Positions 7,381 to 60,200 of a stretch of 64,000 nt of DNA are shown here, piece by piece. This DNA is from Haliotis rufescens (Eukaryota), in NCBI RefSeq assembly GCF_023055435.1, contig NW_025963857.1, positions 558,001-622,000 on the forward strand, in the 5' to 3' direction. How positions within the stretch are numbered: the stretch's first letter is position 1; every line of letters begins with the position of its first letter. The notes below the pieces were generated by a model, which did not search any database, was not told the DNA's origin, and saw nothing but the letters and a program-made list of their open reading frames with translations. A program made the translations under genes and the position numbers.

Positions 7381-7648
7381 GTTTTGTTTATTTGTTGTTC
7401 AACGCCGCACTCACCAATATTCCAGCTATATGACGGCGGTCTGTAAATAATAATGTCTGGACCAGACAATCCAGTGATTGACATCATGAGCATCGATCTA
7501 CGCAATATGGATTTGATGACATGCATCAACTAGGTCAGCGAGCCTGACCACTCGATCCCGTTAGTTGCCTCTTACGACAAGTATAGTCACCTTTTACGGC
7601 AAGCATGGGTTGCTGACGATCTATTCTACCCCGGATCTTCACGGGTCT
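7381..7648 (-). mobile_element. SINE family B copy
   Basis: Full-length reverse complement of family B. Confidence 0.87.
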
Positions 7649-8038: not shown

Positions 8039-8206
8039 GGGGCGGTCGGGTAGCCTAGTGGTTAAAGCGTTCGCTCGTCACGCCGAAGACCCGGGTTCGA
8101 TTCCCGACATGGGTACAATGTGCGAAGCCCATTTCTGGTGTCCCCCGCCGTGACAATATTGCTGGAATATTGCTAAAAGCGGCGTAAAACCATACTCACT
8201 CACTCA
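8039..8206 (+). mobile_element. tRNA-derived SINE family A (about 170 bp, (ACTC)n tail)
   Basis: A-box TAGCCTAGTGG, B-box GGTTCGATTCC, tail GCTGGAATATTGCTAAAAGCGGCGTAAAAC-(ACTC)n, and TSD AACACTCTT(C/A)TT. Confidence 0.9.
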
Positions 8207-13500: not shown

Positions 13501-16500
13501 TGAGATGTTGCTGTAAGGTCTTGATGTGAGATATTGCCGTGAGGTCTTAATGTGAGATATTGCCATGAGGTCTTGACGTGAGATATTGCTGTGAGGTCTT
13601 GATGTGAGATATTGCCGTGAGGTCTTGATGTGAGATATTGATGTGAGATATTGCCATGAGGTCTTGATGTGAGATTATGCTGTCAGGTTTTGCTGTGAGG
13701 TCTTGATATGAGATATTGCTGTAAGGTATTACTGAAAATTCTTGCTGTGAGATATTACTGCAAGGTCTTGAGTTATATTGCTGTGAGATCTTTGTGAAAA
13801 ACTTTTGTGATGTCTTGCTGTGAGATATTGCTGCAAGGTCTTGTGAGATAATGCTGAAAAATCTTTCCGTGAAGTCTTGGTGGAAAATATTTATGAGCAG
13901 TTCGTGATCGTGATGAAAAATCTTTCTGTGAGGTCTGGCTGTGAGATATTGCTACATAATGCACTACAAAACATTAACATTCTAGAAAGAAATGTATTAG
14001 TTGTTTTTATAACCGGTTTGAAAAGACCAAGTGTATTATGATTCTATCTGTCTTCTTTACACTACAGGGCGGTCGGGTAGCCTCGTGGTTAAGGTGTCGC
14101 TCGTCACGCCGAAGACCCGGGTTCGTTTCCCGACATGGTTACAATGTGTGAAGCCCATTTCTGGTGTCCCCCGCCATGATATTGCTGAAATATTGCTAAA
14201 AGCGGCGTAAAACCAAACTCACTCACTCACTCTTTACACTACATCCTAACTATCAGTGTAAGGTCTGACATGTCTCGGTGTGGCTGGAACCTCTGGAATA
14301 CTGGAGACCAAACAAACACAACAAGGATGGAACCTGGTGATTATATGATATTGTTTTCTCCCTTCGTTCATGACAGTGACAGACTATCTGGTCTGTTATT
14401 CACTCAGTATGATGCATATTGCACCATGTTTCAATGGAGACTATTACACTTACGTTAGCGTTATACGGTACTTTTGCAGTTCAAATGGCTAAGAGTCACG
14501 CAAGGGCAATGCAGGAATGTGATCGGCGTCGCCAGGCGGATCTGAAGGAGAGACAGGAAGCCTTCAGCGAGGCCTTCACTGAAGACATGGACTTCTACAA
14601 GACACATGGACACACAGAACGTAAGACAGACACTACAGACAGACACTACAGACAGACACTACAGACTGGCAGAATAGGGCCCTCCTTTGTTGCATGAGGT
14701 GTCCCTTAATGCAGTGTTGAAATAAGCAGCTGCCCTTAGGCCCGTGGCAAGTAAATATTGTGTTGGGCTCATAGTTTAAATTTGTATGGGTCCTTGTGGC
14801 CTGCAGTAAATGTACTTGTCAAATTATTTAGCCTTGTGGTTAAAGCGTTGGCTCGTCACGCTGAAGACCTGGGTTCGATTCCCGACATGGGTACAAAGTG
14901 TGAAGCCCATTTCTGGTGTCCCCCACCGTGATATTGCCGGAATATTGCTAAAAGCGGCTTAAAAACCATACTCACTCACTCACTCACTCACTATAAGCTG
15001 TAGTGTTTTAAATGAGGGCCTGACTACTTCAGTCAGGGCCTGCAGCATCTAAAGTCTGTGGGTCCTGATGACATCCTGGTATTTTATATTTCAAACACTG
15101 CCGTAATGTCTGACCATCTAGTGGTGGTGTAACAATACATTGGTACATACGATACATACGATACATACGATACATTACATTACAAGTTATGTTGGTGTGA
15201 AAACACGTGAATAATAACAGATTTAAAAAGATGAACACAACCAGCTCACACAGATTCTCTGGTATTTCCTGGTATGTATAACATTCACATCTCGCATTTT
15301 CCATCTCGGGAATTTGAAAACAAATGATTCAGGGTTGTGATTAACCTGCAGAAAAGAGGGAATATTATCTGATGAAATTAAAGGAGGGAGAGGAAAGGTG
15401 GATGAAGACTAATGGTAACTGATGTGGGATTGGCTTCCGTTACTAAAACATCTTGTGATGTGGTATTTTCACTATGTGTTGTCGATTATCAAAACTTGAG
15501 GAACCTGAGTCTACCGATGTAACCACATTCCGGCAACCAGGGTTAGGGTAGTACTGAAAAACAAAATAAATGTTTCATTGCGTGACAAAAACTGCCATTG
15601 TATCTTTTCTGTTAAACGCATGTAAAATGACAGGAAAGTACAAAATATCCTTTAGAACATCACACAGGGATGCAAAATCACCATCATAGTTACTGTTGTT
15701 ATTCTAAAGTATTCAACAATCGAGAGTTACATCCCTGACACATATCACAACATATATATGGAATAAATACCTAGTTAATTATATTCCTTAAAATGCTTGA
15801 ATGACTGAGTAAATGAAACTAATGAGCTTTACTAATGATGCTGGCATGTGTATCACTGGTCAACCCACCCCTTGTTCCAGAGCTGAAGGTGTCTGACATT
15901 CCAATGCCTAAGGTCAGCAGCCTGAGTGACATCACGATAGACGACGACCAGATGATCATCAACAGCTTCCTCGCTTCCACGGAAACAACGCCGTCCAAGG
16001 AGAGAGCTTCCGGTAAGACAAACACCAGTTGGGCTGAACACAACTTCCTCTAGACTCCTTGTGCTCTGAGTGGACCATTGATTCAGACACAATCAGGACA
16101 ACGTGGATCCTGAGGCAGGTGTACTCCTTGTGCTCTGAGTGGACCATTGATTCAGACACAATCAGGACAACGTGGATCCTGAGGCAGGTGTACTCCTTGT
16201 GCTCTGAGTGGACCATTGATTCAGACACAATCAGGACAACGTGGATCCTGAGGCGGCTGTACACCTTGTGCTCTGAGTGGACCATTGATTCAGACACAAT
16301 CAGGACAACGTGGATCCTGAGGCAGTGTACTCCTTGTACTCTGAGTGGACCATTGATTCAGACACAATCAGGACAACGTGGATCCAGAAGGAGGGTGCTA
16401 TGGGTGAACAAACAGCTTTTCTTAAACAAAGTGTACATACATTTGGAAGTTGTACAGGTAATCTGGTGTGCAGAGTGTAAAGCTTTGCAACACTACAACC

Positions 16501-57208: not shown

Positions 57209-60200
57209 ATGATGATGAGACCACCAGGCATGCGACCTCCGGGGATGGGACCACCCAGGATGAGGCCTCCAGGGCCTGGTCCCCAAGGACCACCTCGACC
57301 CATGGGACCACCTGGTCCGCGTGGACCACCGAGACCGGGACCACCAGGGCCACAGGGACCACCTCGACCTCCAGGCCCACCAGGACCAGGGCCTGTCAGC
57401 AGTAATACAAATGATCCAGCATCTGCCAAGTCTCGAGTATTTGTTGGAAATTTGAACACTTTTGCTCTAAATAAAGAAGACGTAGAGCAAATCTTTATGA
57501 AGTTTGGATTAGTCACAGGAATATCCATGCACAAGGGTTATGCATTTGTACAGTATGGGCGAGAAATGGAAGCAAGAATAGCGGCAGGGGCTGAAGATGG
57601 GAAGAATTATGCTGGGCAGGTTATTGGTGAGTATCCAGCTTTACAAACTAACTCTAGTTTTCTTTTGAATGTTATTCCAGTATGTTTTCATTGATGGAAA
57701 TTAAATAAGAACATCTTCTAGCACAAATAGTGATAACATGGCAATACTTACCAAAGTGTTTGAAATTCTACTATCCCTTAGGATACCTTTAACATTACAA
57801 AACTGGTCCTGGCTAGTGCTAATTTCAATGTGTGGGTTTGTCATAATGTCTACAGACTAGTAGTGGGACGATACACTGCATAAGTGTGTCATGGTTTTTT
57901 ATTTCTCAATACAAGTATTGATCACAGTCGTACATTAAGTAACATATTTTGATTTTTGCTTAAAGTTAAACATTTACTTTTTTAACTGTTACCACAAACA
58001 TTAGTAGTAAAAATTTGTAGTGAAAACGTATATATTTTCATCCATTGCATCATACTTGACACTGCCAACTGTAAATCGTCAGGTATTTGGCCATCCTGTC
58101 TATGAAAATGATGGCTTACATATCACAGATAAGAGCACATGCAATTATAGTGATATGTAGCAGATCGTGAGCATGGTATCTGATGTGTATCAGATTGCAC
58201 AGTTTGTGTAATGTCCCAGTCCTACTACAGACATATACCCGTGAAGATCCGGGGTAGAATAGGTCTTCAGCAACCCATGCTTGCCGTAAAAGGTAACTAT
58301 GCTTGTTGTAAGAGGCAACTAACGGGATCGGGTGGTCAGGCTCGCTAACTTGGCTCATGCATGTCATTGTATCCCAATTGCGTGGATCGATGCTCATGAT
58401 ATTTTTCATTGGATTGTCTGGTCCATGCTCGATAATTTGCAGACTGCCGTCAATTAGCTGGAATAGTGCTGAGTGCAGGTTAAACAACAAACAAACTAAA
58501 CAAAAGAAATACTACAGACATAAATAATTTAGTTTCTACATTGGGTATCGTATGTGAGAGAGACTACCCTGTGGTTCATGGAAGCTTCATCACAATACTT
58601 TATTACCAGATCATTGATACTTTACAGCTTTGTATACCCTACGCTACTCCATCACCCATGAGACCCGTGAAGATCCGGGGTAGAATAGGTCTTCAGCAAC
58701 CCATGCTTGCCGTAAGGCATTTATGTTTGTCGTAATAGGCGACTAACAGGATCGGGTGATCAGGCTCGCTGACTTGGTTGATGCATGTCATCGATCCCAA
58801 TTGCTTGGATCGATGCTCATGATAATAATCACTGGATTGTCTGGTCCAGTCTCGATTATTCACAGACCGCCGTCATATAGCTGGAATATTGCTAAGTGCG
58901 GCGTTAAACAACAAGCAAACCATGACCCATGAATACATATGGCCAGTTTACGGTGTTGTTACTATAATTAACAAACTAATCCAGCGACAGCCTGTTTCAT
59001 GTGATAGACAAACCAACAAGTGCTCACACGAATGAGTACTCATTGAGTACACAGAGCTCCAGATTAGCTGCGTATCTGCATAAAATACGCATCAGAAATG
59101 CAGAAATATGCAGTGAAATAAAATTCAAGCGTATCAAATATGCAACGAACATTACAGATACGCTACAAAAATAAAACTTGTGCGTATCATCACAATATTG
59201 TTAAGTAACCCTGCATATTCGATTAGCAAATCAAACTTATTTTGAAATTATATACAGACATTCCGTCAGCCTTGCCAAACTCCACGATGACAGTTACATC
59301 ATGATCATTTGCCATCACACTTTCTTGTGGAAGTATCGCAGTATTTTTGAGTCCTATAAAGCTCTCGAACCCACACGACAACAGTTTGCAGGGACTCGAT
59401 GAAGTGTTTTTAAATATTTAACTTGTGTGTAAAAACTAGTGGGTACCAGAAATTTGAATACCCAGATAGAATTACTGATACCCAATGATTTTAAAATGCA
59501 TGGGTAAAATACCCACAACACCAAAAGCTTATCTGGAGCTCTGGTTTTTTTATTTGACATTGTGTGCAACAAGTGTCTCATCTGTGTGGTATCTGCTCTA
59601 CACATTGCTTCACTGTAAAGCAGTGGTAGGTTTCACATAAGGTTCTTTCACTTAATAGGGCTCATTTGACATTCATGAGTTATACATGACCTAATTTCAT
59701 AAGCTGACTGTGTGTGTGTGTGTGTACGTGTGTACAGACAATGTAGGGAACGTAGTGTATGCAACCCGTGAAGATTTGTCCATGTTCAATATGTCGTATC
59801 TTGATCCATTAAAATGTAACCTGTATAACTGAGTTGTGGACATGCTGTGATCTGACTGTGCACCAGAGTCCTCAAGCTGTTGTTGCATTTATTGACTGAC
59901 TTGACATGTCTGGATTCCTAACATGCATAACCCATTATTATCTCCACTAAGAAGTAATCTGTACCAAGTGAATCAGTGTGCTTTTAAGTGACAATAACAG
60001 TATTAAGATACTGGTTCTTCTTCCAGCAACAAATATAGCCTCTGAGCCGAAGGGTCGTGGAATCAAGAAAACACCACCCAATGAAAGGTGAGTTTCAACC
60101 ATTCCAGGGAATGTTAGCAAGGTGATAGTTTGTGCAGTTTGATGGAACAAGTGTTTAACATCTGTTTAAGAATGACAAGGGTTCAGTGTTAACATACCCT

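Follow-up and report, generated by a model that had tools for sequence, protein, structure and literature searches.

A SINE head in Haliotis rufescens belongs to a conserved RNA motif, with a predicted fold of two tandem pseudoknots, that recurs in a LINE and in viral 3' UTRs and may resist exoribonucleases

How does a SINE whose head is not a tRNA come to have a fixed 5' end? The question is raised by two neighbouring copies of one family in a stretch of 64,000 nt of the Haliotis rufescens genome (NW_025963857.1, positions 558,001 to 622,000), the whole of which was analysed and is called the window below. The two copies and their borders are as follows.

58649..58661 (+): 5' target-site duplication of 13 bp, CCATCACCCATGA, identical at 12 of 13 positions to 58920-58932
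58662..58919 (+): whole SINE copy, 258 bp, with a structured head, a body and a LINE-like tail ending in GTTAAA plus a (CAAA)n-type repeat
58662..58663 (+): two-nucleotide leader GA, the 5' edge of the family (G in 29 of 37 copies, A in 34 of 37; the letters upstream are mixed)
58920..58932 (+): 3' target-site duplication, CCATGACCCATGA, partner of 58649-58661
58236..58492 (+; ends approximate): second full copy of the family, with a perfect 13-bp duplication, TACTACAGACATA

The initial annotation of this DNA had described SINEs with target-site duplications at 58237 and 58662, and 13-bp duplications were indeed found at both. The duplication ended exactly at the GA-CCCG edge in 5 of 7 well-scoring cases. 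The family has the features that define a SINE, being short, abundant, flanked by target-site duplications and equipped with a simple-repeat tail but no ORF: about 10 full or partial copies lie within the window, and a 28-mer from the head has 26,164 exact matches in the 1.33-Gb genome, as compared with 0 for the reversed control. A pattern check of the element confirmed that it lacks the A/B box expected of a tRNA-derived origin, and no Rfam family matched at gathering score over the element in the window; a tRNA-, 5S- or 7SL-derived SINE was rejected because there was neither an A/B box pattern nor an Rfam small-RNA match. The hairpin unit of the head, as previously noted, is single near 2574 and 19086 and doubled near 7381, 58237 and 58662. 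The window also holds a second, tRNA-headed SINE family of about 170 bp (8044-8115, +), with copies near 14067, 14829, 26238, 35540, 39620, 49529 and 61927.

SINEs of this kind have been described before. Matetovici et al. (2016) reported LP-SINEs in Haliotis, Littorina, oysters and scallops, the first ~70 bp of which match the 5' ends of Nimb-17_LMi, I-3_DR and RTE-9_CPB, and proposed that the LP head is a LINE-derived promoter, citing Pr77 as an analogy (PMC4758252, in part). The element studied here shares with these LP-SINEs (Hdi_LP/Hmi_LP, Lsa_2 and the pectinoid MESC SINEs) a ~70-bp head without a tRNA part, and its 258 bp are close to the 255 bp of Hmi_LP, a comparison of lengths rather than of consensus sequences. 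The expectation that similar heads occur in other mollusc SINEs was therefore borne out by that publication, and the head sequence is to be regarded as already published and LP-SINE head-like. The LP proposal, in the portion of the paper available, makes no use of an RNA structure in the head, of a viral occurrence or of an upstream ribozyme, all of which are described below; none of the three was found in Rfam or in searches of open-access papers.

The structure predicted for the head of the 58662 copy comprises the following parts.

58664..58679 (+): helix S1, CCCG (58664-58667) with CGGG (58676-58679); 4 of 4 pairs here, 77 of 80 over 20 lineages
58668..58695 (+): helix S2, GAAGATC (58669-58675) with GGTCTTC (58688-58694), crossing S1 to form predicted pseudoknot 1; 7 of 7 pairs here, 120 of 140 over the lineages, with an extra pair possible between U58668 and A58695
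58680..58687 (+): A-rich loop 3 of pseudoknot 1, GTAGAATA, containing AGAATA
58695..58727 (+): helix S3, AGCA (58695-58698) with TGCT (58704-58707), or with TGTT (58724-58727) of the duplicated unit; 71 of 80 pairs over 20 lineages
58700..58751 (+): helix S4, CCC(A) (58700-58703) with GGG after CTAA (58747-58751), crossing S3 to form predicted pseudoknot 2, from the swap test
58704..58723 (+): first, degenerate copy of the duplicated hairpin unit, from copy comparison and folding
58729..58746 (+): conserved hairpin P5, GTCG-TAATAGG-CGAC, then TAA; 4 of 4 pairs, formed in the single-sequence fold

The strands follow the order S1a-S2a-S1b-AGAAUA-S2b-S3a-S4a-S3b-hairpin-UAA-S4b, which amounts to two serial H-type pseudoknots with the hairpin in loop 3 of the second. 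We compared this arrangement over 20 lineage representatives (14 repeats and 6 viral elements, all natural sequences in a fixed register). Two-sided changes were found in 2 of 4 columns of S1, 7 of 7 of S2 and 3 of 4 of S3, and swapping partners between lineages reached the observed totals in 1 (S1), 0 (S2) and 0 (S3) of 20000 swaps, counts that overstate significance because the lineages are related and the register rules were set after viewing the sequences, the S1 rule keying on GG. S4 scored 81 as compared with 64 for swapped partners (0 of 3000 swaps reached 81), having at least 3 pairs in 17 of the 20 lineages and being weak or absent in L037, L038 and L168. The viral rows taken alone are paired at 22 of 24 positions in S1, 41 of 42 in S2 and 22 of 24 in S3. 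Helices S1 to S4 were in no search pattern, whereas AGAAUA and the hairpin were (the former in most patterns), so that the constancy of these two is partly built in; AGAATA was nonetheless present in all 5 viral matches found using the hairpin alone. When a fixed rule was applied to 6 later sequences, S3 was recovered in 5, and S1 plus S2 fully in 2. The scallop "Nimb-17 homology" block (PMC4758252, Suppl. Fig. S2), compared by eye, shares the AGAA and TCGTAAGAGGCGACTAA core, and its S2 differs in sequence yet remains complementary. Together, the comparisons support a head that is a conserved RNA motif with a predicted fold of two tandem pseudoknots and a hairpin. Single-sequence folding, a method that ignores pseudoknots, gave modest z-scores (-1.1 to -2.6).

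The initial annotation had already drawn a pseudoknotted RNA at this 5' end, and conserved pseudoknots are what covariation supports, but two of its helices were mispaired. Its stem of TGAAGATC with GGTCTTCA corresponds to S2 and covaries over the 20 lineages. The proposed closing stem, CCCGT with ACGGG, scored 63.0 as compared with 62.5 for swapped partners over the same lineages (1389 of 3000 swaps reached it), and the proposed GGGT/ACCC pseudoknot 62.5 as compared with 62.2 (1494 of 3000). If this SINE family is taken alone, both can be drawn, and single-sequence folding forms the closing stem, but neither covaries; the 5'-terminal CCCG pairs instead with CGGG in the first loop, and the partner of ACCC is the GGG that follows CTAA. 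For the hairpin, we favour the register GUCG-UAANAGG-CGAC over the one drawn initially, on the thin evidence of one double change (L248), G-U to G-C variants at the base and folding; the first duplicated unit of the SINE agrees better with the earlier register. In the 58662 copy the GGG strand of S4 is damaged to CAGGA, and S1, S2, S3 and the second hairpin are intact.

The motif core was found by pattern scan in further repeat families of the same genome. The first ~50 nt of the SINE head are repeated head to tail at G000:C1:4,569,969-4,570,601, L003 and L014, and a tandem array of AT-rich units of ~600-820 bp spans G000:C57:2,176,621-2,236,307 and beyond, each unit carrying an intact motif from an older SINE head, with no Rfam match. 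A first metagenome pattern scan returned no match; a second placed the motif core in at least 120 metagenome loci and several animal repeat families, among listed matches that undersample diversity and in which few families dominate. One metagenome family (L072, at least 17 loci) keeps only the 3' half of the motif, beside an apparent opposite-strand (ACTT)n tail, and in its S4 the middle pair is reversed.

Seven distinct viral lineages carry the motif, and were characterized as follows.

L037: Peptidase_A21 capsid (Pfam)
L172: RdRP_3 and nodavirus-type capsid (Pfam)
L039: RdRP_3 (Pfam)
L169: RdRP_4 (Pfam)
L300: RdRP_3 and S-domain coat (Pfam)
L161: long ORF without a Pfam or PDB match
L168: large DNA virus contig, 212 kb

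In the six contigs other than L168, the motif lies on the sense strand, about 5-200 nt past the last stop, with 17-122 nt left to the contig end, and L161 and L300 each have a second, tandem copy. RNA-virus hallmarks (RdRp or capsid) were matched in Pfam for 5 of these 6; the long ORF of L161 gave no Pfam or PDB match, and hence its RNA-virus status is not established by a hallmark protein. In the DNA virus the full motif is intergenic (L168:2980-3056, +), upstream of a 958-codon ORF and near a NAD-dependent ligase gene. A sequence-only model built from 12 non-viral rows scored the seven viral lineages at E 1e-13 to 2e-6, as compared with 0.006 or worse, or no score, for ten pattern-only control loci, a comparison that is partly circular given that all loci were picked by the core pattern. 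Looser viral scans returned mostly chance matches: among 9, 11 and 44 rows the only new full motifs were L168 and L169, and among the 10 rows of a further scan only L300. L162, in which the hairpin matches, was not counted as a viral case, being antisense to its long ORF and missing S1. Rfam at loose E-values showed no family over the motif in 8 + 1 + 8 loci. Because it is present in RNA viruses, on the sense strand and twice in tandem, the motif is judged from its sequence contexts to act as RNA.

We claim no bacterial version of the motif: 5 matches in prokaryote assemblies look like animal DNA. They lie among simple repeats (L303, L305), LINE ORFs (L306) and low-GC repeat context (L302, L304). 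These animal-type repeats, one of them a LINE on a symbiont scaffold, occur in five assemblies and are likely contamination.

The most informative relative of the SINE head is found in an intact 6.2-kb LINE (L244), with an ORF1 of 453 codons and an ORF2 of 1229 codons encoding an APE endonuclease, RT and RNase H. Its motif is located in the 5' UTR, about 550 nt before ORF1, and matches the SINE head at 78% over 54 nt, plus the hairpin, so that a ~70-bp LP-type head is shared with a LINE 5' end. The initial annotation had held that alignment to a LINE 5' UTR with no structure conservation would speak against it; the alignment exists, and the structure is conserved. This LINE family begins 58 nt upstream of the motif; a 14-bp target duplication ends at that point, which is G1 of a complete HDV-like fold.

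L244:9170-9113, equal to G000:C2 near 22,565,669 (-): HDV-like leader, 58 nt, with P1 of 7 bp including G1-U, P2 of 7 bp, P3 of 3 bp, L3 UCCUCGU, GG, a very short P4 and CUAA

The leader matches Rfam HDV-F-prausnitzii at E 0.0042, below gathering score, and has 3180 first-look candidates in the genome. We collected 30 LINE copies by motif and downstream sequence only (the best 40 of 1737 candidates were scored, and one copy is the query). The whole leader from G1 is present in 28 of them, one has an internal deletion but starts at G1, and one is cut inside the leader; 29 of 30 thus begin at the ribozyme G1 and 0 of 30 at the motif. Since HDV-like units cut just 5' of themselves (PMC4035085, in part), the 5' end of the LINE is likely made by the HDV-like ribozyme, and the LINE motif likely neither cuts off the leader nor sets a start. 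The SINE copies have no such leader, and the L3 consensus was found in 0 of 29. Many copies (L250-L264) match L244 only over the first ~315 nt (ribozyme, motif and part of the UTR) and then diverge, this region being one 5' cassette common to several LINE subfamilies. The LINE and SINE tails are similar over the last 38 nt, but the alignment score of 53.5 does not exceed the shuffle maximum of 54, and L244 is therefore not established as the partner of the SINE.

What, then, might the motif do? We tentatively propose, at a confidence just short of even, that it is a putative new type of exoribonuclease-resistant RNA (xrRNA) that sets or protects a 5' end, a reading drawn from structure and position. 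Host transcripts would read through a SINE copy, XRN1/XRN2 would chew from the 5' end up to the knot, and their halt would release a unit-length SINE RNA with a fixed 5' end, making a tRNA promoter or ribozyme unneeded; the LINE reverse transcriptase would then copy the trimmed RNA from its 3' tail. In the LINE with the upstream ribozyme the motif would be a second guard of an uncapped RNA, and in viruses the product would be a short 3' RNA, like that left by flavivirus xrRNAs. The fuller claim, that a new xrRNA class is common to animal retroposons and invertebrate-type RNA viruses and that a large SINE group also gets unit-length RNA, without promoter or ribozyme, via trimming by host decay, is possible but on the doubtful side.

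Several observations are consistent with a nuclease block. Covariation of S1 and S2 places the 5' strand in a pseudoknot, and all six viral contigs other than L168 carry the motif behind the last stop, with a tandem copy in 2; flavivirus xrRNAs, too, typically stand in tandem within the 3' UTR (PMC8374639, in part). In four ribozyme-less repeat families the 5' edge lies at S1 minus 2 (GA, AC, GC and GC; n = 37, 16, 17 and 3), that is, 6 nt before the base of S2, a distance comparable to the 5-6 nt that separate the halt site from P1 in mosquito-borne flaviviruses (PMC5760640, in part); the fit is a post-hoc one. That LINE copies start at the ribozyme and not at the motif is expected if the motif blocks rather than cuts. 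Viral xrRNAs (flavivirus classes 1a, 1b and 2, the Tombus/Luteoviridae type and coremin) are likewise pseudoknotted, with the 5' strand in the knot, and located in the proximal 3' UTR, often in tandem. Unlike them, the motif has two serial H-type knots, with a hairpin in loop 3, in place of a three-way junction, and is also located at the 5' ends of cellular retroelements, its resistance being putative. No described xrRNA class (three-way junction type, Tombus/Luteoviridae type or coremin) matched in Rfam, and the helix order differs from that of the classes in the available part of PMC8374639. Other observations speak against a block. All 4 families begin with a purine, as would be more natural for a transcription start or a copied cap than for a nuclease halt. 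Only 2 nt precede S1, fewer than the 5-6 nt held by Xrn1, unless S1 is opened. Solved xrRNAs are defined by a ring of 15-16 nt around the 5' end, and it is not obvious that a plain H-type knot forms one. The LINE family, with 0 of 30 copies starting at the motif, offers no trimmed product. A mechanical block has no need of a specific binding partner, yet the hairpin sequence is near-invariant and suggests one. The reads from three miRNA-seq runs numbered 24 in all, with no pile-up of ends, too few to inform.

The constancy of the hairpin and AGAAUA across viruses and animals would suit a motif that binds the ribosome or an initiation factor. In the LINE 5' UTR and the viral 3' UTRs it would promote cap-independent translation, and in the SINE RNA it would be a ribosome dock by which LINE protein is captured. 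In the LINE, the motif stands about 550 nt ahead of ORF1 and behind a ribozyme whose cleavage would produce an uncapped RNA, and the viral copies sit in 3' UTRs of viruses with RdRP_3 or RdRP_4 polymerases, groups in which the absence of a cap is common. The tandem upstream pseudoknot domain of tobamovirus 3' UTRs and 3' cap-independent translation enhancers likewise have H-type knots with A-rich loops, one after another, downstream of the stop codon; the resemblance to the motif is one of knot layout, and to our knowledge such tandem pseudoknot domains have not been described at retroelement 5' ends. We nevertheless consider a translation role rather unlikely, as it leaves the fixed 5' edge of the SINE unexplained without a second mechanism, no Rfam translation element matched over the motif, and the viral tandem copies fit an xrRNA at least as well. 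In the published LP proposal, the head is a DNA-level internal promoter, to which the RNA fold would add a second role, as in trypanosome Pr77. In its favour, SINEs and three LINE consensus sequences begin with the head (PMC4758252, in part), +1 is a purine in all four families, and the SINE has no other promoter. This proposal leaves the RNA viruses unaccounted for, and as the whole story the promoter role also raised in the initial annotation does not hold, the motif occurring in viruses without a DNA stage. A start 2 nt upstream of the motif would moreover cost LINE progeny the ribozyme, yet no LINE copy starts there, and head spacing varies by up to 15 nt between families; we regard a promoter as quite unlikely.

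A replication or packaging signal, bound by the element's polymerase or a Gag-like protein, would account for a position near RNA ends in all settings, but the polymerases are unrelated (RT, RdRP_3 and RdRP_4) and the end differs, 5' in one setting and 3' in the other, which makes this very unlikely. We give the least credence of all to an unclassified self-cleaving ribozyme cutting at or near the 5' edge, as the initial annotation had suggested. Its resemblance in hairpin-CUAA-stem order to HDV P4-J4/2-P2 is real: like the HDV-like retroelement ribozymes (R2Rz, L1TcRz/Pr77), the motif has a 5' position, the order S3a-S4a-S3b-hairpin-CUAA-S4b of pseudoknot 2 equals P1-P2-P4-J4/2, and the Rfam HDV model aligned the LINE hairpin-CUAA strand as P4-J4/2 (E 0.51); the SINEs, too, have a fixed 5' edge. 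However, P3, L3 (YYCNCGY) and P1.1 are absent from the head and from the upstream sequence of 29 of 29 SINE copies, an extra knot stands in front, and the knots are in series rather than forming a nested double pseudoknot from the cleavage site, the P1-like S3 having 4 bp, as compared with 7 bp for P1, and lying 33 nt inside the element. In the register that we favour, by the L248 double change and folding, the hairpin would be closed by the C of CUAA, and CUAA varies to CCAA among LINE copies. The true HDV-like unit of the LINE is separate, upstream and retained in 29 of 30 copies; as these copies start at the ribozyme and not at the motif, self-cleavage at the 5' edge of the motif is unlikely, and cleavage would also remove the 3' end of linear viral genomes. 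Block, translation, promoter, replication and ribozyme roles can be combined.

If the exoribonuclease-block reading is true, the motif would be the first xrRNA with a role in cellular genomes, present in tens of thousands of copies. A 2021 review, in its available part, states that all xrRNAs characterised so far were viral and raises the question of cellular ones (PMC8374639); the motif gives a direct and cheap test of that question, and the LINE that carries both ribozyme and motif offers a natural control by which cutting can be told apart from protection. The motif also reopens how LP-SINEs acquire their 5' ends, a point left open in 2016, and would represent a single RNA module that has passed among retroposons, RNA viruses and a large DNA virus. 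As the genome holds more than 26,000 copies, a fold that blocks nucleases or binds ribosomes could influence the decay of host RNA.
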